From assembly GCA_043765375.1 (NCBI GenBank), contig JAYUJH010000028.1, positions 12,332 through 76,331 on the forward strand: a stretch of DNA of 64,000 nucleotides, read 5' to 3'. The notes under the pieces were generated by a model. It saw nothing but the letters and a program-made list of their open reading frames with translations, did not search any database and was not told the origin of the DNA. Shown piece after piece: positions 555-55,179 of this stretch. Within the stretch, counting starts at the first letter, position 1, and each line of letters opens with the position of its first letter. Origin of the DNA: Alphaproteobacteria bacterium. GTDB lineage: Bacteria > Pseudomonadota > Alphaproteobacteria > Rickettsiales > UBA998. The position numbers and the translations under genes are program-made.

Positions 555-1001
555 ATGACTGCTTCAACATTTGATACATTTCCCGCTGATAAATCACCGT
601 TTGATAACTCAAAACTTGATGTGGCGCAATTTGATACACTAAAGCATGTTAAGCGGTTGGAGAGTGCAGGCTTCACCCGTGAACAAGCGGAGTTGCAAAC
701 CGAAATTGCGGCAGAAGGCTTGCGTGCAACAATGCAACATTATGCAACAACTGCCGAGGTTACTCAGTTCAAATCAGAAATGAAAGGCGATTTTCAGGCG
801 TTGCGTGTAGATTTTCAGGAATTAAAACATCAAATGGAGTTGATGGAGAAAAATGTTGATAATAAAATAAGTAGTCTTGAAAATAGAATGCAAAAAGAAC
901 TTGCTCCTATTCGCACACAAATGGCGGTTATAATGTGGACGCAGGTCTTGATTGTGTTGACGGTGGTTGTTCCAGCCGTTAAGCAATTTTTGGGATTATA
1001 G
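555..1001 (+). CDS. DUF1640 (CCDC90/MCUR1-like) coiled-coil protein with C-terminal TM helix
   Basis: 148 aa. Has the FDT..VKRLESAGFTREQAE N-terminal motif, heptad-rich middle and hydrophobic C-terminus (VIMWTQVLIVLTVVVPAV). Paralog of ORF 45245..45565. Confidence 0.7.
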   Translation: MTASTFDTFPADKSPFDNSKLDVAQFDTLKHVKRLESAGFTREQAELQTEIAAEGLRATMQHYATTAEVTQFKSEMKGDFQALRVDFQELKHQMELMEKNVDNKISSLENRMQKELAPIRTQMAVIMWTQVLIVLTVVVPAVKQFLGL

Positions 1002-45244: not shown

Positions 45245-45565
45245 TCAAGCAAAAAATATTTTCAACAATATGCTGATGCTAAGGGTAATGTTTAGCCCCA
45301 TAGTCCATTTAATGAGATTAAGTTCGCCTTTTATACGTTCATCAAGCAATCCAATCTCACTTTTGAAGCTCTTTTCAAGCAATTTCATATCACTAGAGAG
45401 TTCGGACTTAAATCGCTCAACTTCTGGCTTGCTAACTAAATTGCTAAGGCTCTCTGCACGGCTTTCTTTGATTGCCTCAACTACAACTTCGGCTTGCTCT
45501 TCAGACATTCCTTTGGATTGAAGTTTCTTAACATAAAAATGCGTGTCAAATGTAGTTGTATTCAT
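45245..45565 (-). CDS. DUF1640 (CCDC90/MCUR1-like) coiled-coil protein with C-terminal TM helix
   Basis: 106 aa. Has FDTHFYVKKLQSKGMSEEQAEVVVEAIKE and a C-terminal hydrophobic segment. Paralog of 555..1001. Confidence 0.7.
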   Translation of the reverse strand: MNTTTFDTHFYVKKLQSKGMSEEQAEVVVEAIKESRAESLSNLVSKPEVERFKSELSSDMKLLEKSFKSEIGLLDERIKGELNLIKWTMGLNITLSISILLKIFFA

Positions 45566-47172: not shown

Positions 47173-48888
47173 TTAAAAACTATATCTTGCACCAAAGCGA
47201 TATAATTGTGAACTCCAGCTGACCTCATTAAGTTTTTGTGATGATGTGCTACCATTGCTGAAAATCACGGTGTCAATCCCATCTTCCAAGCTAAATGAGC
47301 GATATTTTATACCACCAAACAAGCCCCAGCCTGAATCCGTGAATAGATAATTATAATTTCCACCCAGTTCAAACCCCATGCCATTGCCTGAATTAATGAA
47401 GCTAACTGGTTGGTTGAAGCTGGTGCGTAAGTTCCATTCTCCCGTGCCTTCAAAATTAGCATAATGCAATTCACCACGGAAATCCAACAAATGTGAGCCA
47501 GATTTGAACCCACCTTTTAGCCCCGCAAAAGGCCCGCTCCATTGCATTTCATAATTGCTATCAAGCCCCTGAAATGCCCCTGTTTGTGGCACAACTTGCA
47601 CCCCATTTTTCATATTATAATTGGTTGTTTGGCTAGAATATCCAACAATTGGCGTGAGATATGATTTTGTTTGATTATCCGAGCTATCCATACGGATTTC
47701 ATAGCCCCCACCGATTTTATAGCCCATTGCATCGCTATCATCATTGCTGGAAGTTGAGCGTGAAATCTCAGTTAATCCACCAGCCGTTGCAGGAGTTGTT
47801 GCGGGCGCACCATTAGTAGTGGTTGGTGGTGCATTTTGATAATCCGAATCACGAGTTTCACCCGACAAACCTTTCGCATAATAAACCGAGCCTTCAACAT
47901 GCACTCCTTTGACTGAACCATCACGATGCGTATATTCACCTTCGCCCCCAATTTCCGCCATCGTCACCCCTTCAAATGCTAACTCCGAGAGTTTGGTAGG
48001 GTTTTGTCCTGCGATGTCCCCCGCAACATTCCAATTGGCATTATCAACACGATAGCCCGTATAAATACGCCCTGCGAATGCTGGCTGTGGTGCAATATTG
48101 CGCTTTTCGGGCGGTATATATTGCTGCCAACCATATTCAGATGCTGATTTTTGTGGAGCGTTTAAGTCCTGTGGAATATTTTGCGCTTGTGGCATGATTT
48201 GAGGTTGAGCTAATTGAGCTTGTGTTGTTTGACCTTGAGATATTTGCGCTTCTTGTGCATAATTATCACTCGGCATATATTCAGCTTTGCTTTTATCTAA
48301 GTTTTTATATGGTGTCGCAATATTCAATGGTAATGAATTATTTGCGGGATTTGCAGGATTTGCGAACGGCGTCACCACGTTTGAGATTGCTTTATTGCTA
48401 TAAGCTGATGATGAAGTCGTTTTGTTTTTAGAAAATATAGCTGGTGGTTCAACTGCCTCAATAATCACCACTTCACCATTCATTGCTTGTGTTAGTGGAG
48501 GCTTGGGAAATATTGGATTAATTTTTACTGGTGCAATATTTATTGGTGCAATATTTATTGGTGTGACATTTGCACCCGTAATATTTGCTTGTGTAACTTT
48601 TTGATTTGTTGCCGTTGCAAATGGTATTTTAATTGGCGTCACCACCGCTGGAGCAACATATTGCTGCGTTGGCTGGGGAGAAATGCTTGCATTGGGACGA
48701 AGATTTGGACGAGGGCGAACTGCCTGCGGGCGACCATTAATTTGTGTTCGTCCCGCTGATCCGCCACCATTTGCATAATCTCTATTAGCATAATACGGTT
48801 CGGCATTGCTTCCCACAGATTGCATTACGGAGCATGATGCAACGAGTAATACGATTGAGAGCAATTTGGCATTTGTGAAAAATCTCAT
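47173..48888 (-). CDS. Outer-membrane beta-barrel lipoprotein with Pro/Gln/Asn-rich repetitive linker
   Basis: 571 aa. Lipobox LVASC. Repeats PINIAPINIAPVKINP, ANPANPANN and QAQLAQPQIMPQAQNIPQ. The C-terminal ~270 aa have an alternating beta pattern ending ...FGARYSF. Confidence 0.6.
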   Translation of the reverse strand: MRFFTNAKLLSIVLLVASCSVMQSVGSNAEPYYANRDYANGGGSAGRTQINGRPQAVRPRPNLRPNASISPQPTQQYVAPAVVTPIKIPFATATNQKVTQANITGANVTPINIAPINIAPVKINPIFPKPPLTQAMNGEVVIIEAVEPPAIFSKNKTTSSSAYSNKAISNVVTPFANPANPANNSLPLNIATPYKNLDKSKAEYMPSDNYAQEAQISQGQTTQAQLAQPQIMPQAQNIPQDLNAPQKSASEYGWQQYIPPEKRNIAPQPAFAGRIYTGYRVDNANWNVAGDIAGQNPTKLSELAFEGVTMAEIGGEGEYTHRDGSVKGVHVEGSVYYAKGLSGETRDSDYQNAPPTTTNGAPATTPATAGGLTEISRSTSSNDDSDAMGYKIGGGYEIRMDSSDNQTKSYLTPIVGYSSQTTNYNMKNGVQVVPQTGAFQGLDSNYEMQWSGPFAGLKGGFKSGSHLLDFRGELHYANFEGTGEWNLRTSFNQPVSFINSGNGMGFELGGNYNYLFTDSGWGLFGGIKYRSFSLEDGIDTVIFSNGSTSSQKLNEVSWSSQLYRFGARYSF

Positions 48889-48938: not shown

Positions 48939-49559
48939 TTAATTGAATGGACAATGTTGTTTAATCGCTAAATCTAACTGTTCCATGGTGATTTTTACGC
49001 CGAGTTGGTGCATTGATGTCACGCCATAATCACGCAATCCGCATGGCACAATTCCCGCATAATGTGAGAGGTCAGGATTGAGATTAATCGCCGCCCCGTG
49101 ATAACTAACGCCTTTGCTAATGCGAATCCCAAGCGCAGCGATTTTCGCTTCATTGCCTTGATGCGCAACCCATATCCCGATGCGCCCTTGTCGCCTCTCG
49201 CCTGTGATGTCAAAGCTAGCTAGAACATCAATAATCCATTGCTCCATGGTGAACACAAAATGGCGCACATCTGGCACTTTGGGAGCATATCGGCGTTTGA
49301 GATTTAGCATCGCATAAATAATGCGTTGGTTTGGGCCGTGATAGGTATATTGCCCACCCCGCCCTGATTGATAAACTGGCAAATCGCTTTGCAATAAATC
49401 ATGGATTTTAGCCGATGTTCCCGCCGTGTATAATGACGGGTGTTCCAGCAACCATATTTCTTCCTCCGCATCGCCTGAAGCAATTTCCGCAACTTTTATC
49501 TCCATCAATGCAATTGTTGGTTCATATGGTGCGGGGTTGTTGAATGTTTGCCATTGCAT
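48939..49559 (-). CDS. lipB: Octanoyltransferase (lipoyl(octanoyl) transferase)
   Basis: 206 aa. Has EHPSLYTAGTSA, RGGQYTYHGPNQ, and KIAALGIRISKGVSYHG. Confidence 0.92.
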   Translation of the reverse strand: MQWQTFNNPAPYEPTIALMEIKVAEIASGDAEEEIWLLEHPSLYTAGTSAKIHDLLQSDLPVYQSGRGGQYTYHGPNQRIIYAMLNLKRRYAPKVPDVRHFVFTMEQWIIDVLASFDITGERRQGRIGIWVAHQGNEAKIAALGIRISKGVSYHGAAINLNPDLSHYAGIVPCGLRDYGVTSMHQLGVKITMEQLDLAIKQHCPFN

Positions 49560-49561
49560 GT

Positions 49562-50110
49562 TTATTTTAATATTTTTAGTTCATTTAATCTTGTTTCCAT
49601 CGCTGGTTCAGAAACTTGAAACATTTCAGCGAGTTTTGTGATTGCTTCTTTAGTATTAATTTTTCCGTCCGATTTTCTGGCAATCATTTCCCTGATTTCC
49701 TTGATAATGCTTGATTGTGGCATTAATAATCTAGCAGCAAAATCATTAGCTTCCTTTTCTTTAGAGCTTTTATTTCCATCTTTTCTTGGTTCTCTAATAA
49801 CTATATCTTTTTTACCTTTTATAATTTCAGGTATAAAATGTTTTATATAATGTCCAATTTCATGGGCAGCGGTAAAATTACGCCTTAATTTATATTCAAA
49901 CGGATTAATCCATATTGTCGTTTTACCATCTGCATAAGTTATTTCTCCAGAGAGCGGCATTAACTCTGTCTCGTATCGCTCATTAAAAAATATTCCTAAT
50001 TTATCTATAATTGCATATGGATTAAAAGGAGGGAAGGTTAAGCCCAAAATTTGCAAAAGCTCCTCTGGTTCAATATTGTTTAATTCTTTGATTGTATATC
50101 CGGTTGACAT
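49562..50110 (-). CDS. ImmA/IrrE family (Peptidase_M78, COG2856-like) zinc metallopeptidase, standalone (cassette 1)
   Basis: 182 aa. Has RRNFTAAHEIGHYIKH (HExxH) and EKEANDFAARLLMP (third-ligand Glu region), C-terminal ...LAEMFQVSEPAMETRL. No HTH domain. Confidence 0.8.
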   Translation of the reverse strand: MSTGYTIKELNNIEPEELLQILGLTFPPFNPYAIIDKLGIFFNERYETELMPLSGEITYADGKTTIWINPFEYKLRRNFTAAHEIGHYIKHFIPEIIKGKKDIVIREPRKDGNKSSKEKEANDFAARLLMPQSSIIKEIREMIARKSDGKINTKEAITKLAEMFQVSEPAMETRLNELKILK

Positions 50111-50114
50111 CGGT

Positions 50115-50642
50115 CTAATCCCCTAAGCTACTTTCATAAATACAGGTTTGTTCTGAATATTCAATGGTTTTTTTCTTGTTTTCTTCGTTTGTCTTTGAAT
50201 CTATTAAGATTTTAACGGCTTCATTAAATTGATGTGAATCTATTATTGCTTGAATGATTTTAGTTTTCACTTCTCCTTCTGGAAGTAATCCAATTGCTAT
50301 GCTGTCGTTAATTTTATCTATCTCTATTTTAACATCCTGTTTTATTTCGTTCTTTAATGATTCTCTGCTTTGCTGAATGCGATATTGAAGCCAAATGAGT
50401 GCAAAACCTAAAAAAGTTACTAATATTGCACTAAATGCAAGTTGATTGCTTGCAGTTGACAAAACATTTTCAATATGCTGATTAACTATATCATATTTTC
50501 TGTCTAAAATCATCTCATAATGTATTTGTAGCTCAATATCTTTATCAAGGGCAGATAGATTGCCCATGTCCAACTGTAATTCATATGATTTTTGTAAATC
50601 TAACGAATTATATTTAATTGTTGAGGTTGCATTATTGTTCAT
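50115..50642 (-). CDS. Hypothetical single-pass membrane protein (cassette 1 partner); ORF is open to 50690, overlapping the aspS 3' end
   Basis: 175 aa from ATG 50642 (191 aa from 50690). Central helix LAFSAILVTFLGFALIWLQY flanked by charged, coiled-coil-like segments. AT-rich. Stop lies 4 nt before the peptidase ATG. Confidence 0.6.
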   Translation of the reverse strand: MNNNATSTIKYNSLDLQKSYELQLDMGNLSALDKDIELQIHYEMILDRKYDIVNQHIENVLSTASNQLAFSAILVTFLGFALIWLQYRIQQSRESLKNEIKQDVKIEIDKINDSIAIGLLPEGEVKTKIIQAIIDSHQFNEAVKILIDSKTNEENKKKTIEYSEQTCIYESSLGD

Positions 50643-50646
50643 AAAG

Positions 50647-52497
50647 TTAAGCGGCTTCTTCACCATTCCCAACAGTTCGTTCGCTGTCAATCACACCCTT
50701 CGCCTTAGCGGAGAGTTGCAAGTTTAGTTCCCGCAATTGCTTATCATCAACAATGGCGGGGGCGTTCATCAGCAAATCTTGCGCCCTTTGATTCATTGGA
50801 AATGCTATCACTTCGCGGATATTCGGCTCATCAGCAATCAGCATTACCATGCGGTCAATTCCTGGGGCGATACCACCATGCGGCGGTGCGCCATAATGAA
50901 ATGCTTTCCATAATGCGCCAAACTTGCGCTCAATCGCTGATTCATCATAGCCCGCAATTTCAAATGCTGCTCGCATAATATCGGGGCGGTGGTTACGGAT
51001 TGCACCAGACGAAAGTTCCACCCCGTTACAGACAATATCATATTGATATGCAAGGATTTTTAACAATTCTTCACGGTTACCTTTGGCAGCAAGCAACGCC
51101 TCCAACCCGCCTTGGGGCATTGAAAATGGATTATGTGAAAAAATGATTTTTTTCTCCTCAGCGTCCCATTCATAATAAGGAAAATCAACAACCCAACAAA
51201 ACTTGAAGATATTTTTATCAATTAATTCTAACTGAGTTCCAACTTCAGTTCGCACTTTACCCGCAATATTCGCTGCTTCATCAGGCGTGCCGCTGGCAAA
51301 AAATACGCTATCACCATTTTTTATTCCCACTTTTGCGCATAAAACAGCCAATTTATCTTGTGGTAAAAACTTCGCAATTGCTCCTTTTGCCACGCCGTCA
51401 TTATCCAATGTGATGTAAGCCAAGCCTTTTGCCCCATTTTCTTGCGCAAATGCTATCATTTTATCAAAGAAACTTCTCGGTTTGTCCGCCGTATTTGGTG
51501 CTGGAATTGCCCGCACCGCAAGCCCTTTGCTCGCCATATCAGCGAATATTTTGAACTCTGTGCCAGCCCAAATATCCGCCACTTCGCAAATCTCAATTGG
51601 ATTGCGCAAATCAGGTTTATCGCAACCATATTTAAGCATCGCCTGCGTGTAAGGAATGCGTGGAAATGCTTCTGTGCCAACATTTTTGCTAGAAAACTCT
51701 GTGAATAATTCACGCACCACTGGCTCAATCACGCCGAACACATCTTCTTGCGTGGCAAAACTCATTTCCATATCTAACTGATAAAACTCCCCCGGTGAAC
51801 GGTCAGCCCTTGCATCTTCATCACGAAAACATGGTGCAATTTGAAAATAGCGGTCAAAGCCAGAAGTCATCAGTAATTGCTTGAATATTTGCGGAGCTTG
51901 TGGCAGTGCATAAAACTTGCCCGCATGAACACGGCTTGGCACGAGATAATCCCTCGCTCCTTCAGGTGATGAACTGGTGAGAATTGGTGTTTGAATCTCC
52001 AAGAAATTAAGAGCAGTCATTTTTTGGCGCAAACTTGAAATCACCTTAGAGCGCAACACAATATTATTATGCAGTTTTTCACGGCGCAAATCTAAAAAGC
52101 GATATGTAAGCCTTGTTTCTTCAGGGAAATCACGCTCGCTATTCACCTGTAACGGCAATGGTTCAGCGAGGGATTCCACATGACAATCGGTGATTTTCAC
52201 CTCAATTGCTCCAGTGGCAAGTGTTGCATTAACCGCCTCTTGAGTGCGAGAAACAACCGCACCTTGCAATGTTATCACAGATTCATTTTTTAAGCCTGCC
52301 ACCACTTCAAACAGCGCATTTTCAATAATATTTTTATCTACCACGCATTGAGTGATACCATAATGATCGCGCAAATCTACAAATATCAACTGCCCATGAT
52401 CCCGCACACGATGCACCCAACCTGAGAGTTTGACTTGCTCACCTGCATGACTTTCGGTTAATTCGTTGCAATTATGGCTGCGATAAATATGGTTCAT
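50647..52497 (-). CDS. aspS: Aspartate--tRNA ligase (probably non-discriminating type)
   Basis: Has class II motifs FRDEDLRADR-like ([22 protein letters not shown]) and [13 protein letters not shown]. Start trimmed to ATG 52497 ([13 protein letters not shown]). Confidence 0.95.
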
Positions 52498-52628
52498 TAT
52501 TTCAATCCTCAAAAGATTTGGCATTATTCAAATTGATTTATAAAATAATTAGCGCAAATGTCAATAAATCTTATGAGTGGGCGCAAATGTTGTGAATATT
52601 AAACAAATATCAAACTAAAATATCAAGT

Positions 52629-53774
52629 TCATGATAATTTATTTTTGAAATCTTCATAGCCAAATGATTTTATCAGACGATACTCACCATTTTCTTCCAA
52701 CACCCCAATATCTGGCAAAGGAACGCCATTGAAACTTGTATTTTTCACCATACTATATTGCATCATATCAGTAAATATAACATTATCACCCGCCTGCAAT
52801 GGTTTGGCGAAATTGTAAGTCCCGATAATATCACCTGTTAAGCAAGTATTGCCCGCTAAAATATATTGATGCGAATGAGAAGCATTCTCATTATTTGCGT
52901 CATCAATAATCGCCACATCACCAATCACATTTGGACGATATGGAACTTCCAACACATCGGGCATATGGCAAGTGGCTGAGGCGTTCAAAATAGCGATATT
53001 TGCACCGCCACAATGCACCACATCAATCACTGTTGCAACCAGATATCCCGCATCATAAACATGTGCTGCGCCAGATTCCATGATAATGCGCAAATTAAAT
53101 GTTGTTTGCATGTGGTTAATGGCGGCAATCAACGCCTCTACATCATAATTTGTATGGGTGAAATAATGCCCTCCCCCAATATTCAAATAATCAATATGAT
53201 GCAAAATATGCGGGGCAATATCGCATAAATGCGCAAGCAAAGCGGTGGAATCTGCTGCCATATTTTCGCATAAATTATGAACATGTAATAGGTTGATGTG
53301 GCTTAAAACTTCGGGCGTTATGTCTGATATAGTCACGCCAAAGCGAGATGTTGAGTTTGACGGGTCGTATATCGGGTTGTTCTGCACTAGCGATAAACGA
53401 GGATTAATGCGCAATCCCCGCACTTTGAACTGCTCACCATAAGCGGTTAATTGCTTGATTGAGTTGAAGGATATATGCTGACAAATCGGAGCAAGTTGGG
53501 CGATATCATCGGCTGAAAAAGCGGGGCAGTAAGCATGGACTTCACCACAAAAATGCTCATGTCCAAGCCTTGCTTCATATAGCCCACTTGCCGTTGTGCC
53601 ATCAAGCACTGTTGCAAACTCATTAAATATGGCAAACATGGAAAATGCTTTGGTCGCCAGCAACATGGTGCAATTTGTTGATTGTTTGATATGCGCTGCA
53701 ATACGCAAATTAGCCCGTATTTTAGCCATATCCGCCACATAAGCGGGGGTATTAATGTGGTTGAGGATTTTCAT
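52629..53774 (-). CDS. nspC: Carboxynorspermidine/carboxyspermidine decarboxylase
   Basis: Reads TPAYVADMAKIRANL..., with an alanine-racemase-like barrel pattern, GGGHYFT, and the C-terminal beta domain. Start trimmed to ATG 53774 (MKILNHINTPAYV), 1 nt after the upstream gene's stop. Confidence 0.82.
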   Translation of the reverse strand: MKILNHINTPAYVADMAKIRANLRIAAHIKQSTNCTMLLATKAFSMFAIFNEFATVLDGTTASGLYEARLGHEHFCGEVHAYCPAFSADDIAQLAPICQHISFNSIKQLTAYGEQFKVRGLRINPRLSLVQNNPIYDPSNSTSRFGVTISDITPEVLSHINLLHVHNLCENMAADSTALLAHLCDIAPHILHHIDYLNIGGGHYFTHTNYDVEALIAAINHMQTTFNLRIIMESGAAHVYDAGYLVATVIDVVHCGGANIAILNASATCHMPDVLEVPYRPNVIGDVAIIDDANNENASHSHQYILAGNTCLTGDIIGTYNFAKPLQAGDNVIFTDMMQYSMVKNTSFNGVPLPDIGVLEENGEYRLIKSFGYEDFKNKLS

Positions 53775-53775
53775 G

Positions 53776-54096
53776 TTATTTGTTGTCTGAAGTAGAATCT
53801 TTAAGTAATTTAACGAAAAATCCTGCCACTCCCCCAACTGCAAAAATTGTTACTCGTTCAATTGTTTGAATTGATTGAGGTTCAACGGAATTATTATCTA
53901 ATAAATATATTCCATATAAATATGCTGAAAACGCTATTGCGGTGGATAATGTTAAACAAATTATGAAAATTATGACGGCTAAACAAAAGACAATCCAATT
54001 ATATAATTTTTGTTTGCGACGTTCGGAAATATCCTCCTTGACCTCTGCGTTTAGGCTTTCTTCAAAGGTAGTATTATATTCTTTATCATTATTCAT
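53776..54096 (-). CDS. Hypothetical small two-TM membrane protein (cassette 2 partner)
   Basis: 106 aa. Helices WIVFCLAVIIFIICLTLSTAIAFSAYLYGIYLL and VTIFAVGGVAGFFVKLL. ATGA overlap with the upstream peptidase stop. AT-rich. Confidence 0.6.
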   Translation of the reverse strand: MNNDKEYNTTFEESLNAEVKEDISERRKQKLYNWIVFCLAVIIFIICLTLSTAIAFSAYLYGIYLLDNNSVEPQSIQTIERVTIFAVGGVAGFFVKLLKDSTSDNK

Positions 54097-54602
54097 GATG
54101 CAGATACAAGCCCCAGACTTAATGCTCTATAGTATGTTGCATCTTTGGAAACGCCAAAAAAATCTGCAATATCTTGAATCTTTGGCTCTGCTCCCAGTGC
54201 TTGCCACGCTTTGATGAAGTGATTAGTTGGCATAAGCAAGTTAGCAGCAAATTGATTGGCTTCTAATTCTCTTCCACGATATTCAAAGTCAATTATGTCA
54301 CCGTCTCTGTCTATAACTCTATGTTCCTCTAAATAATCACGATGAATCACAAAATGTGCAATTTCATGGGCTATAGTAAATCTTCTTCTCACCGCAGCTT
54401 TTCTTTCATTGATAATTATGCTAACTTCACCCTTTTCATTAATTTGGATATGACCATCTTTACCCTTAGCATAATTTTTAGACTGTTCAATTCTAATCCC
54501 TAGATTGTCGCAAATCTGTCCAATTTGAACCATTGGCTTAATTGAAGGTAATCCTTGAAGTAATTCCTGAGCTTTGCTTTCTATCTCTTCTCTCATTATC
54601 AT
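54093..54602 (-). CDS. ImmA/IrrE family (Peptidase_M78, COG2856-like) zinc metallopeptidase, standalone (cassette 2)
   Basis: Has RRRFTIAHEIAHFVIH (HExxH), ELEANQFAANLLMP, and ...IADFFGVSKDATYYRALSLGL. Start set at ATG 54602 (alternative 54596). The track's TTG 54638 coincides with a -35 hexamer. Confidence 0.8.
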   Translation of the reverse strand: MIMREEIESKAQELLQGLPSIKPMVQIGQICDNLGIRIEQSKNYAKGKDGHIQINEKGEVSIIINERKAAVRRRFTIAHEIAHFVIHRDYLEEHRVIDRDGDIIDFEYRGRELEANQFAANLLMPTNHFIKAWQALGAEPKIQDIADFFGVSKDATYYRALSLGLVSAS

Positions 54603-54609
54603 AAATGAT

Positions 54610-54638
54610 ATTATATATAACGTAAATCGCTTTTGCAA
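54610..54638 (-). promoter_or_regulatory. Near-consensus sigma70 promoter TTGCAA-N17-TATAAT immediately upstream of the cassette 2 peptidase (possible leaderless mRNA)
   Basis: The minus strand reads cTTGCAAaagcgatttacgttataTATAATatcatttATG. Only 7 nt separate the -10 from the ATG, and there is no SD. Confidence 0.5.
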
Positions 54639-54651
54639 GTAATTATGATAT

Positions 54652-55179
54652 TTACAATTTCAACAATTTTTTGCGAATGTCGGGTTCGGAGGTGGATTCA
54701 CCAAGCCAGATTCCCATGAATGCTTGTTCCATTTCAGCGTTACGTAACACGCCCGTTGATTTGCCATTATGGCAGAAAAATAATCCCATATTCGGGCGAT
54801 AAACCGCAGATATATTATCACCTTCCACGACATTTGGCAAAAGTGGGGGCAAAATCCGTTTGAAATCTTCCAACATCACTGCATCAACATTTTTATTATG
54901 CTGCAATTCCTCCAGACTCCGTTCCACAAAATCTTCGCCGTCAATATCCACAAAATATGTGAGATGCAGGGCGTGGGGGGAGTTCATGTTCCATTTTGGG
55001 GAATCACTCCAAAACTCTACATCATAAACATGGAACAACAACTTGTTGAGGGTAGCAGTGCCTTGAGGTTTGCTGCTTTTAACAACTGAGGCAATGCAAG
55101 GCGGCGCAGAATTAGCAATATTTGCGGTGTAAAAAATCAAAAAACAACATAACATCAAAATATATTTTTTCATAAACAT
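54652..55179 (-). CDS. Chalcone isomerase-like family periplasmic protein
   Basis: 175 aa with a signal peptide. Has ...LLFHVYDVEFWSD..., HALHLTYFVDIDGEDFV and FMGIWLGESTSEPDIRKKLL, typical of bacterial CHI-like proteins. Confidence 0.55.
   Translation of the reverse strand: MFMKKYILMLCCFLIFYTANIANSAPPCIASVVKSSKPQGTATLNKLLFHVYDVEFWSDSPKWNMNSPHALHLTYFVDIDGEDFVERSLEELQHNKNVDAVMLEDFKRILPPLLPNVVEGDNISAVYRPNMGLFFCHNGKSTGVLRNAEMEQAFMGIWLGESTSEPDIRKKLLKL

Follow-up and report, generated by a model that had tools for sequence, protein, structure and literature searches.

Two small gene pairs, each consisting of a stand-alone M78 zinc metallopeptidase and a small membrane protein, are found in a 64,000-nt stretch of contig JAYUJH010000028.1 of an uncultured alphaproteobacterium (the whole stretch is hereafter "the window", and all coordinates are window positions). 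We believe that both pairs, referred to as cassettes 1 and 2, are probably mobile RosmerTA-like two-gene toxin-antitoxin or abortive-infection modules, in which the membrane protein of cassette 1 (TM1) would be the effector and its peptidase (pep1) the protease antitoxin. A functional two-gene unit of this type had been suggested in an initial annotation of the DNA; it is now supported by the complete co-occurrence of the two genes, whichever of them the search starts from, and by the homology of the peptidases to RmrA.

The same homology means that the kind of module is already known: an ImmA/M78 antitoxin with a membrane-depolarising toxin, phage-borne and defensive, has been described and validated once, and the locus opens no new category. 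What is new is the TM1 family as a putative toxin family, its strict pairing with one M78 subfamily, and the position of such pairs next to prophage repressors.

The two cassettes comprise the following features; all genes of the cassette region, as open reading frames (ORFs) of the window, are on the minus strand.

50115-50642, minus strand: TM1, a 175-aa single-pass membrane protein, putative toxin/effector (ORF, hydropathy, homologues)
TTG at 50690, minus strand: alternative start of TM1 (191 aa)
50119-50124, minus strand: Shine-Dalgarno-like AGGGGA within the last TM1 codons, 8 nt before the pep1 ATG
49562-50110, minus strand: pep1, a 182-aa stand-alone M78 (ImmA/IrrE-type) zinc metallopeptidase, putative antitoxin/controller (PF06114)
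54093-54638, minus strand: pep2, the second stand-alone M78 peptidase, 181 aa from TTG 54638 (PF06114)
53776-54096, minus strand: TM2, a 106-aa small membrane protein (window ORF, hydropathy)

Background

RosmerTA was first defined by Millman et al. 2022, who did not succeed in deleting rmrA, which might be due to toxicity. The cassettes resemble that system in being composed of two genes, for a toxin and a Zn-peptidase antitoxin; its toxins are of unknown function. Ernits et al. 2023 (PMC10440598) tested a pair of Gordonia phage Kita, namely gp32, or RmrA-D25 (YP_009301393.1, Peptidase_M78), and gp33, or RmrT-D5 (YP_009301394.1, transmembrane). In E. coli, RmrT-D5 causes rapid membrane depolarisation and permeabilisation, RmrA-D25 neutralises it in part, and together the two genes give protection from phages Bas54 and Bas59 (PMC10440598). 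In the same study ImmA/M78 (D25) acts as a hub antitoxin, combined with numerous toxins in either gene order (toxin first in 58%), and an N-terminal helix-turn-helix (HTH) domain is frequent, although not universal, in the proteins of the D25 node (PMC10440598). Literature searches under other names for an M78 peptidase with a membrane partner led to no system but RosmerTA.

Results

Co-occurrence of the two genes

In the search from the peptidase, the pairing is kept in 10 of 10 metagenome loci and in one Helicobacter prophage, where the order is integrase, transmembrane (TM) protein (without the coiled coil) and M78. Directly upstream of each of the seven pep1 homologues in the databases (34-41% identity) is a gene of 165-325+ aa with no Pfam match; it overlaps the peptidase gene or ends at most 17 nt away from it, and its product has one TM helix and the same C-terminal motif. 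The search from the membrane protein gives the same result, with M78 directly downstream in all 18 loci found: L003, L008 and 16 of 16 IMG/VR loci. Four of these 16, which were obtained with the TM-family alignment, are new, i.e., missed by the peptidase search; with a narrower TM alignment, one locus came from metagenomes and none from viruses. At the metagenome locus L008, which lies in a different chromosomal context, 13 nt separate the TM gene from a pep1-like peptidase gene downstream of it. Each TM1 homologue with a recoverable context is paired with this one M78 subfamily. The pairing of peptidase and TM protein is obligate across many unrelated genomic contexts, and the TM-M78 pair is supported as a conserved, mobile two-gene unit.

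The preference of such peptidases for membrane partners was also counted more broadly. With a profile built on the pep1 subfamily, 80 loci were obtained from IMG/VR, and after duplicate removal they contain 55 distinct stand-alone M78 genes; an ORF on the same strand within 60 nt was taken as adjacent, and a small protein with at least one TM segment was counted. Such proteins are encoded by 32 of the 45 adjacent ORFs vs. 64 of the 390 other ORFs of the same loci (a background of 16%; odds ratio 12.5, Fisher P = 7e-14). About 58% of the stand-alone IMG/VR M78 genes examined have a small membrane-protein partner.

The partners belong to several unrelated families: the TM1 family, RmrT-D5-like proteins, phrog_8096 and phrog_35754. 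The TM1 family is upstream of the peptidase in 14 IMG/VR loci. RmrT-D5-like proteins are downstream of M78 in at least 16 viral loci among those retrieved by the pep1-subfamily profile (jackhmmer from gp33; L140, L152, L151, L153-L155, L158, L159, L167, L169, L170, L124, L127 and L178-L180), and the RmrT-D5 family appears to be widespread in prophages far beyond Gordonia phages. The phrog_8096 partners are gp2 of Pseudoalteromonas phage ACA1 (L097:277-1520) and a protein of the Vibrio plasmid pLH214-1 (L096:2450-3623), and the phrog_35754 partner is CST123, following CST124, of Clostridium phage c-st (L095:2468-3468). At L095-L098, M78 is followed by two-TM proteins of these unrelated kinds, that at L098:2492-3449 being an orphan. 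The M78 gene of ACA1 (gp1) carries an antirepressor annotation; given its membrane partner, it may instead encode a RosmerTA-like antitoxin.

The pair is found in prophages and in defence islands. Its neighbours include a DNA methylase with HATPase_c_3, ParE with AbiEii, integrases, a resolvase, AAA_21 with RloB, an Eco57I-type methylase and a RelA_SpoT protein; two small ORFs of L102 seem to be HicA/HicB-like, as read from sequence alone, without a family search. In three prophage loci (L102:1818-3537, L106:1354-3489 and L112:1758-3513) a cI-like repressor with HTH_3 and Peptidase_S24 lies directly upstream of the pair on the same strand. The place downstream of a cI-like repressor is the classical one for lysogen-expressed exclusion genes with a membrane component, and the three loci resemble a putative three-gene lysogeny operon like cI-rexAB. 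The likeness to Lambda RexAB is purely positional (a pair after a cI-like repressor), and there is no sequence relationship.

Peptidases and their relation to RmrA

The M78 signature that had been recognised in 49562-50110 is present. Pfam Peptidase_M78 (PF06114) matches residues 62-176 of pep1 with E 5.8e-12, and the protein contains RRNFTAAHEIGHYIKHF and SKEKEANDFAARLLMPQ, both intact; the catalytic residues are those of HExxH (H83, E84, H87), followed by E118...ANDFAARLLMP. In the alignment of the pep1 subfamily neither HExxH nor the downstream E...ANDFAA-x-LLMP varies. Among the PADLOC models CapP is the best match (8.7e-23), and RmrA and PDC-M69B are matched in part.

The AlphaFold2 (AF2) model of pep1 has a predicted local distance difference test (pLDDT) score of 91.6 and comprises the protease core and a helical sub-domain only. 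Its top Foldseek matches are IrrE (3dti/3dte), CapP (7t5t) and PprI (8sln/8slm), with a template-modelling score of 0.55 by query and 0.37-0.44 by the targets of 240-278 aa; sequence-profile matches in the PDB are IrrE, CapP and PprI, plus 9vzy. ImmA-ImmR of ICEBs1, IrrE/PprI-DdrO of Deinococcus and CapP-CapH of CBASS have a protease with the same fold and catalytic motifs as pep1. However, IrrE/PprI and CapP are proteins of 240-290 aa with an extra C-terminal domain, and the 182-aa pep1 aligns to their N-terminal part only; it ends at residue 182, and their C-terminal sensor domain is absent.

The partner differs too. ImmA, IrrE/PprI and CapP cleave an adjacent Xre-type HTH repressor, whereas the cassettes of the window are flanked by aspS, lipB, a pyridoxal phosphate (PLP)-dependent decarboxylase gene and a CHI-like protein gene. 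No HTH family was found in TM1, pep1, TM2 or pep2 at E <= 0.1, which bears out the earlier statement that the pair has no HTH gene and extends it to a cryptic domain. Assignment to CapP/CapH or ImmA/ImmR was rejected, since there is no HTH partner.

An M78 peptidase with no HTH partner had been presented as an anomaly, which can no longer be maintained: RosmerTA of Kita is a validated precedent (PMC10440598). Kita gp32 is similar to pep1 at full length (31.7% identity in 183 columns, E 9e-17) and to pep2 (29.6% identity, E 2e-11). Residues 12-171 of the 178-aa gp32 align with residues 7-180 of pep1, which leaves no room for an HTH domain in gp32, and its likeness to pep1 is on par with that of pep2 to pep1. 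The PADLOC pattern of gp32 is also that of pep1 and pep2, with CapP best and RmrA partial. In both Kita and the window, an HTH-less stand-alone M78 protein of about 180 aa appears to be translationally coupled to a small membrane protein; the Kita pair is phage-borne, whereas both cassettes are chromosomal and lie inside housekeeping gene arrays of an uncultured alphaproteobacterium.

The membrane protein and its family

The single TM helix with a coiled-coil-like flank ascribed to TM1 is confirmed, hydropathy giving one hydrophobic segment at residues 67-85. An N-terminal coiled-coil-like region precedes this helix; a juxtamembrane cluster of basic residues follows it, then a helical C-terminal region that is conserved, and the tail is acidic. 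The family as a whole is built alike, with a coiled-coil-like N-terminal region, which is variable, a juxtamembrane motif, a single TM helix, the basic cluster, two to three conserved helices and the acidic tail. The conserved positions in the family alignment are K49/D51/E58/L61/I115/I133/F139/A142/V143, and the C-terminal helix motif is I-A-x-G-I-L-P ... K-I-I-x-x-I-I-x-S-x-x-F-x-x-A-V or the variant DEDF-R-x-E-F-I. Summed over 17 family members, the counts of K+R and D+E are 3/29 on the N-terminal side of the TM helix and 59/35 on its C-terminal side; by the positive-inside rule, this asymmetry would place the conserved C-terminal domain in the cytoplasm, on the same side of the membrane as the protease.

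Detectable homologues of TM1 are few. Two have 53-54% identity, and five were found at E 4e-5 to 6e-4 in an exhaustive search of 1.8 billion representatives. In a set of 5.8 billion proteins, the profile from an 11-sequence TM alignment returned only two already-known proteins, the candidate list being swamped, and tblastn of phage and plasmid records with one TM1-family member gave no match. No family of Pfam, PHROGs or PADLOC consistently matches TM1 or its relatives. The Pfam matches of single family members to holin, DivIC and spanin (E 0.002-0.05) were discarded as coiled-coil/TM noise, and the coiled-coil proteins that alone were returned by the PDB profile search with the TM1 family were taken as noise as well. 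The AF2 model of TM1 is composed of long helices throughout (pLDDT 62, predicted template-modelling score 0.24), and Foldseek with this low-confidence model gave no match.

Two orthologues, P0011 and P0002, are near-identical across the first 60 N-terminal residues. In the TM helix and the juxtamembrane stretch, P0011 resembles TM1 of the window and not P0002 (FQYRIQQARKSIENEI vs. LQYRIQQSRESLKNEI). Such mosaic orthologues hint at recombination inside the gene.

The window also encodes small coiled-coil proteins with a C-terminal TM helix at 555-1001 (plus strand) and about 45245-45565 (minus strand). The former, matched by the family hidden Markov model with E 5.5e-4, was rejected as a TM1-family member, being by sequence a CCDC90/DUF1640-like coiled-coil and TM protein. 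One of the two is recorded as CCDC90-like (PF07798) in public gene calls; the ORF 555-1001 is the other one, its likeness being read from sequence.

Cassette 2

The second pair of a peptidase and a TM protein noticed earlier does exist, although at about 3.1 kb from cassette 1 and not at 3.4 kb. PF06114 matches pep2 with E 7e-21, and PADLOC CapP does so with 1.5e-30. The relation of pep1 to pep2 is like that of paralogues (32% identity, E 2e-15), and the DNA similarity between the cassettes is confined to the two catalytic motifs. Public gene calls start pep2 at 54596 or 54602 (167 or 169 aa).

The recurrence of the architecture is real only as regards a second pair, since the two units are not the same: TM1 and TM2 have no sequence similarity, the gene order is inverted (the peptidase is first in cassette 2, whereas TM1 is ahead of pep1 in cassette 1), and TM2 has two hydrophobic segments, at about residues 31-57 and 79-98. 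TM2 overlaps pep2 by 4 nt. No homologues of TM2 were found elsewhere, tblastn against plasmids included.

Cassette 2 is the closer of the two to the Kita pair in layout: in both, the protease is first, the overlap is 4 nt, and the partner of about 110 aa has two C-terminal hydrophobic segments. TM2 is the top window ORF for the RmrT-D5-like profile (hmmsearch E 7.9e-4, where the aligned part is hydrophobic and composition can inflate the score), and hhalign gives a probability of 62% and E 7.5e-5 across the two hydrophobic segments. Because the aligned region is hydrophobic, we count this likeness as suggestive only. In contrast to RmrT-D5, to which it bears no sequence resemblance, TM1 has one TM helix, a flanking coiled coil and a conserved, presumably cytoplasmic domain, and is encoded upstream of the protease.

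Gene arrangement and host lineage

The neighbouring genes are as follows.

54652-55179, minus strand: CHI-like protein gene (window ORF, family match)
52629-53843, minus strand: PLP-dependent decarboxylase gene, longest ORF (TTG at 53843)
50647-52524, minus strand: aspS
48939-49559, minus strand: lipB
47173-48888, minus strand: Pom-family outer-membrane protein gene (571 aa), after lipB

The minus-strand order read from the sequence is aspS, TM1, pep1, lipB, with successive gaps of 4, 4 and 2 nt, as had been described. The 44-nt overlap with aspS offered as an alternative is less likely. It would result from the TTG start at 50690; the orthologues P0002 and P0011 start where ATG 50642 falls, so that the 175-aa TM1 is the likelier product and the overlap is probably not real. 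The AGGGGA before pep1 is consistent with translational coupling of TM1 and pep1, and many members of the TM1 family end with Gly-Asp or Gly-Glu just ahead of the peptidase start. In cassette 2, the longest decarboxylase ORF would overlap TM2 by 68 nt; the public call of this gene starts at about 53774, 1 nt past the TM2 stop, and with this start cassette 2 is packed as tightly as cassette 1. No terminator-like site was found on the minus strand between aspS and lipB, where a promoter/terminator scan is uninformative in AT-rich DNA; we infer that TM1 and pep1 are co-transcribed with aspS and lipB.

The cassettes are indeed more AT-rich than their flanks. The GC content at third codon positions (GC3) is 0.239 in TM1 and 0.224 in pep1 vs. 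0.387 in aspS and 0.440 in lipB; for all four cassette genes it is 0.22-0.25 vs. 0.39-0.44 in the neighbours, the mean over the long ORFs of the window being 0.37 (standard deviation 0.054). No flanking repeats or target-site duplications were found around the cassettes.

The Pom match (Protochlamydia outer membrane protein, Pfam, E 3e-28) at 47173-48888 occurs in a genome that is Rickettsiales-like by its aspartyl-tRNA synthetase (AspRS). The Pom protein may reflect an amoeba-associated lifestyle or horizontal transfer.

Among 185,579 species genomes, the nearest species-level references by AspRS are uncultured Alphaproteobacteria and Rickettsiales metagenome-assembled genomes (64-73% identity). 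None of the 80 reference loci (best AspRS 73%) has lipB, the decarboxylase or M78 within 6 kb of aspS. One relative is closer (AspRS 79.8%) and is represented by a 1.7-kb contig with aspS, then TM, then the peptidase, and with the cassette spacing and low GC of the window. Its TM protein is 57% identical to TM1, and its peptidase is 61% identical to pep1 across 51 aligned N-terminal residues, i.e., the cassette proteins diverge faster than AspRS (57-61% vs. 80%). The four-gene order is not universal and is lacking in the nearest references. Judged by these genomes, the aspS-TM-peptidase arrangement is lineage-specific and not core synteny, and it predates the split of the lineages of the window and of the 1.7-kb contig.

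Insertion of the pair between aspS and lipB, which had been read from the tight packing, is another matter. The data contain no empty aspS-lipB site, as the nearest references have no lipB near aspS, and the closer relative already has aspS-TM-peptidase; an insertion between contiguous aspS and lipB is therefore not demonstrable.

In several Rickettsiales metagenome-assembled genomes (L015-L017) a ribonuclease D-like gene, recognised by ORF reading and without a family search, is upstream of aspS on the opposite strand. This gene is missing at that position of the window, which indicates that the aspS neighbourhood is rearranged in the window lineage.

Discussion

We presume that in the RosmerTA-like modules the small membrane protein would be a toxic effector acting at the cytoplasmic membrane, and that the co-translated stand-alone M78 zinc protease would restrain it as an antitoxin. 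TM1 would be held in the membrane by its one helix, with the conserved C-terminal helical domain facing the cytoplasm, where pep1, having no signal, would stay beside it; the variable N-terminal coiled coil could drive oligomerisation or sensing. In an uninfected cell, pep1 would neutralise TM1, either through binding or through cleavage of the cytoplasmic domain of TM1. If a phage infects, the module is lost or synthesis is blocked, the balance would be upset, TM1 would depolarise the membrane and growth would stop. The identity of the toxin, its topology, the control by proteolysis and the trigger are what we infer from the genes and from the tested relative.

Several points weigh against this. 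Neutralisation in the Kita system is incomplete and no reliable complex was modelled (PMC10440598), which leaves the mechanism open even in the reference system. The PADLOC/Millman RmrA models are 357-400 aa long, and pep1 and pep2 cover their central M78 part only (about 135-300). TM1 compared with the RmrT-D5-like profile gives an hhalign probability of 2.6%, and it has no PADLOC RmrT match; PADLOC has no model for Kita gp33, so that the missing PADLOC matches of TM1 and TM2 are uninformative. The structural model of TM1 is of low confidence. The module is retained at the same site in two lineages that are 20% apart in AspRS, and it lies within an array of housekeeping genes, where a defence island would not usually be expected.

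Another explanation, which we consider unlikely, is that of a protease-activated effector similar to gasdermin, where M78 would be the activator: on a signal of infection or damage it would cleave the cytoplasmic domain of TM1, inert until then, and free a pore-forming or depolarising form. The strict conservation of the catalytic residues, which implies that proteolysis matters, would suit this explanation, as would the location of the conserved C-terminal domain, which in the TM family is predicted to share the cytoplasmic side with the protease. The studied M78 proteases IrrE/PprI, CapP and ImmA are signal-activated and cleave a specific partner (PMC2701414 among other sources). However, the one relative tested so far has a protease that neutralises its toxin, the failure of Millman et al. 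to delete rmrA possibly points to toxicity, and pep1 has no C-terminal sensor domain (182 aa vs. 240-278 aa in the Foldseek targets).

A regulatory module seems to us just as doubtful. In it, M78 would, like ImmA, serve as an anti-repressor whose target repressor is encoded at another locus, and the TM protein would tether it or sense, keeping the protease inactive until a signal from the envelope or membrane. Cleavage of a repressor is the canonical role of M78, and the position of the pair is suggestive: it directly follows the cI-like repressor in L102, L106 and L112 and the integrase in the Helicobacter prophage, and its equivalent in ACA1 is annotated as an antirepressor. Nevertheless, the cI-like repressors have their own Peptidase_S24 self-cleavage domain, no HTH gene adjoins the pair in the window, L004 or L008, and the pair moves as a two-gene unit across unrelated contexts.

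It is very improbable that these genes have been domesticated, or are specific to the core of the lineage, and perform a housekeeping task linked to aspS and lipB, or that they are decaying and have no function. Two observations would agree with this: the operon-like spacing of 2-4 nt with no terminator-like site from aspS to lipB, and the aspS-TM-peptidase order in the relative with 80% AspRS identity. Against it, members of the family are known from numerous unrelated settings, prophages among them, and the arrangement is missing from the closest reference genomes. The ORFs are also undamaged, with the catalytic motifs kept, and the cassette proteins diverge faster than AspRS.

Conclusions

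RosmerTA-like modules of the toxin-antitoxin or abortive-infection type remain our preferred reading of both cassettes. It is tempting, although quite speculative, to go further and propose that the TM1 family with its dedicated M78 subfamily is a transmembrane sensing switch of abortive infection. The coiled coil, outside the cytoplasmic membrane, would sense envelope perturbation or the adsorption or injection of a phage, and the C-terminal domain would be continuously trimmed by the protease. If so, the protease would genuinely act as an antitoxin by proteolysis of a protein toxin; to our knowledge, this mode of neutralisation is not yet demonstrated for toxin-antitoxin systems. A corollary is that the modules may persist in a compact genome by wedging into operons that are essential: aspS-lipB for one module and, for the other, the array that precedes the decarboxylase and aspS.

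Genes annotated as "ImmA/IrrE family metallo-endopeptidase" and having no HTH gene beside them are worth inspecting for small membrane-protein partners. The compact two-gene system of the TM1 family, about 1.1 kb, could show whether a RosmerTA protease neutralises by cleavage and what frees the toxin.

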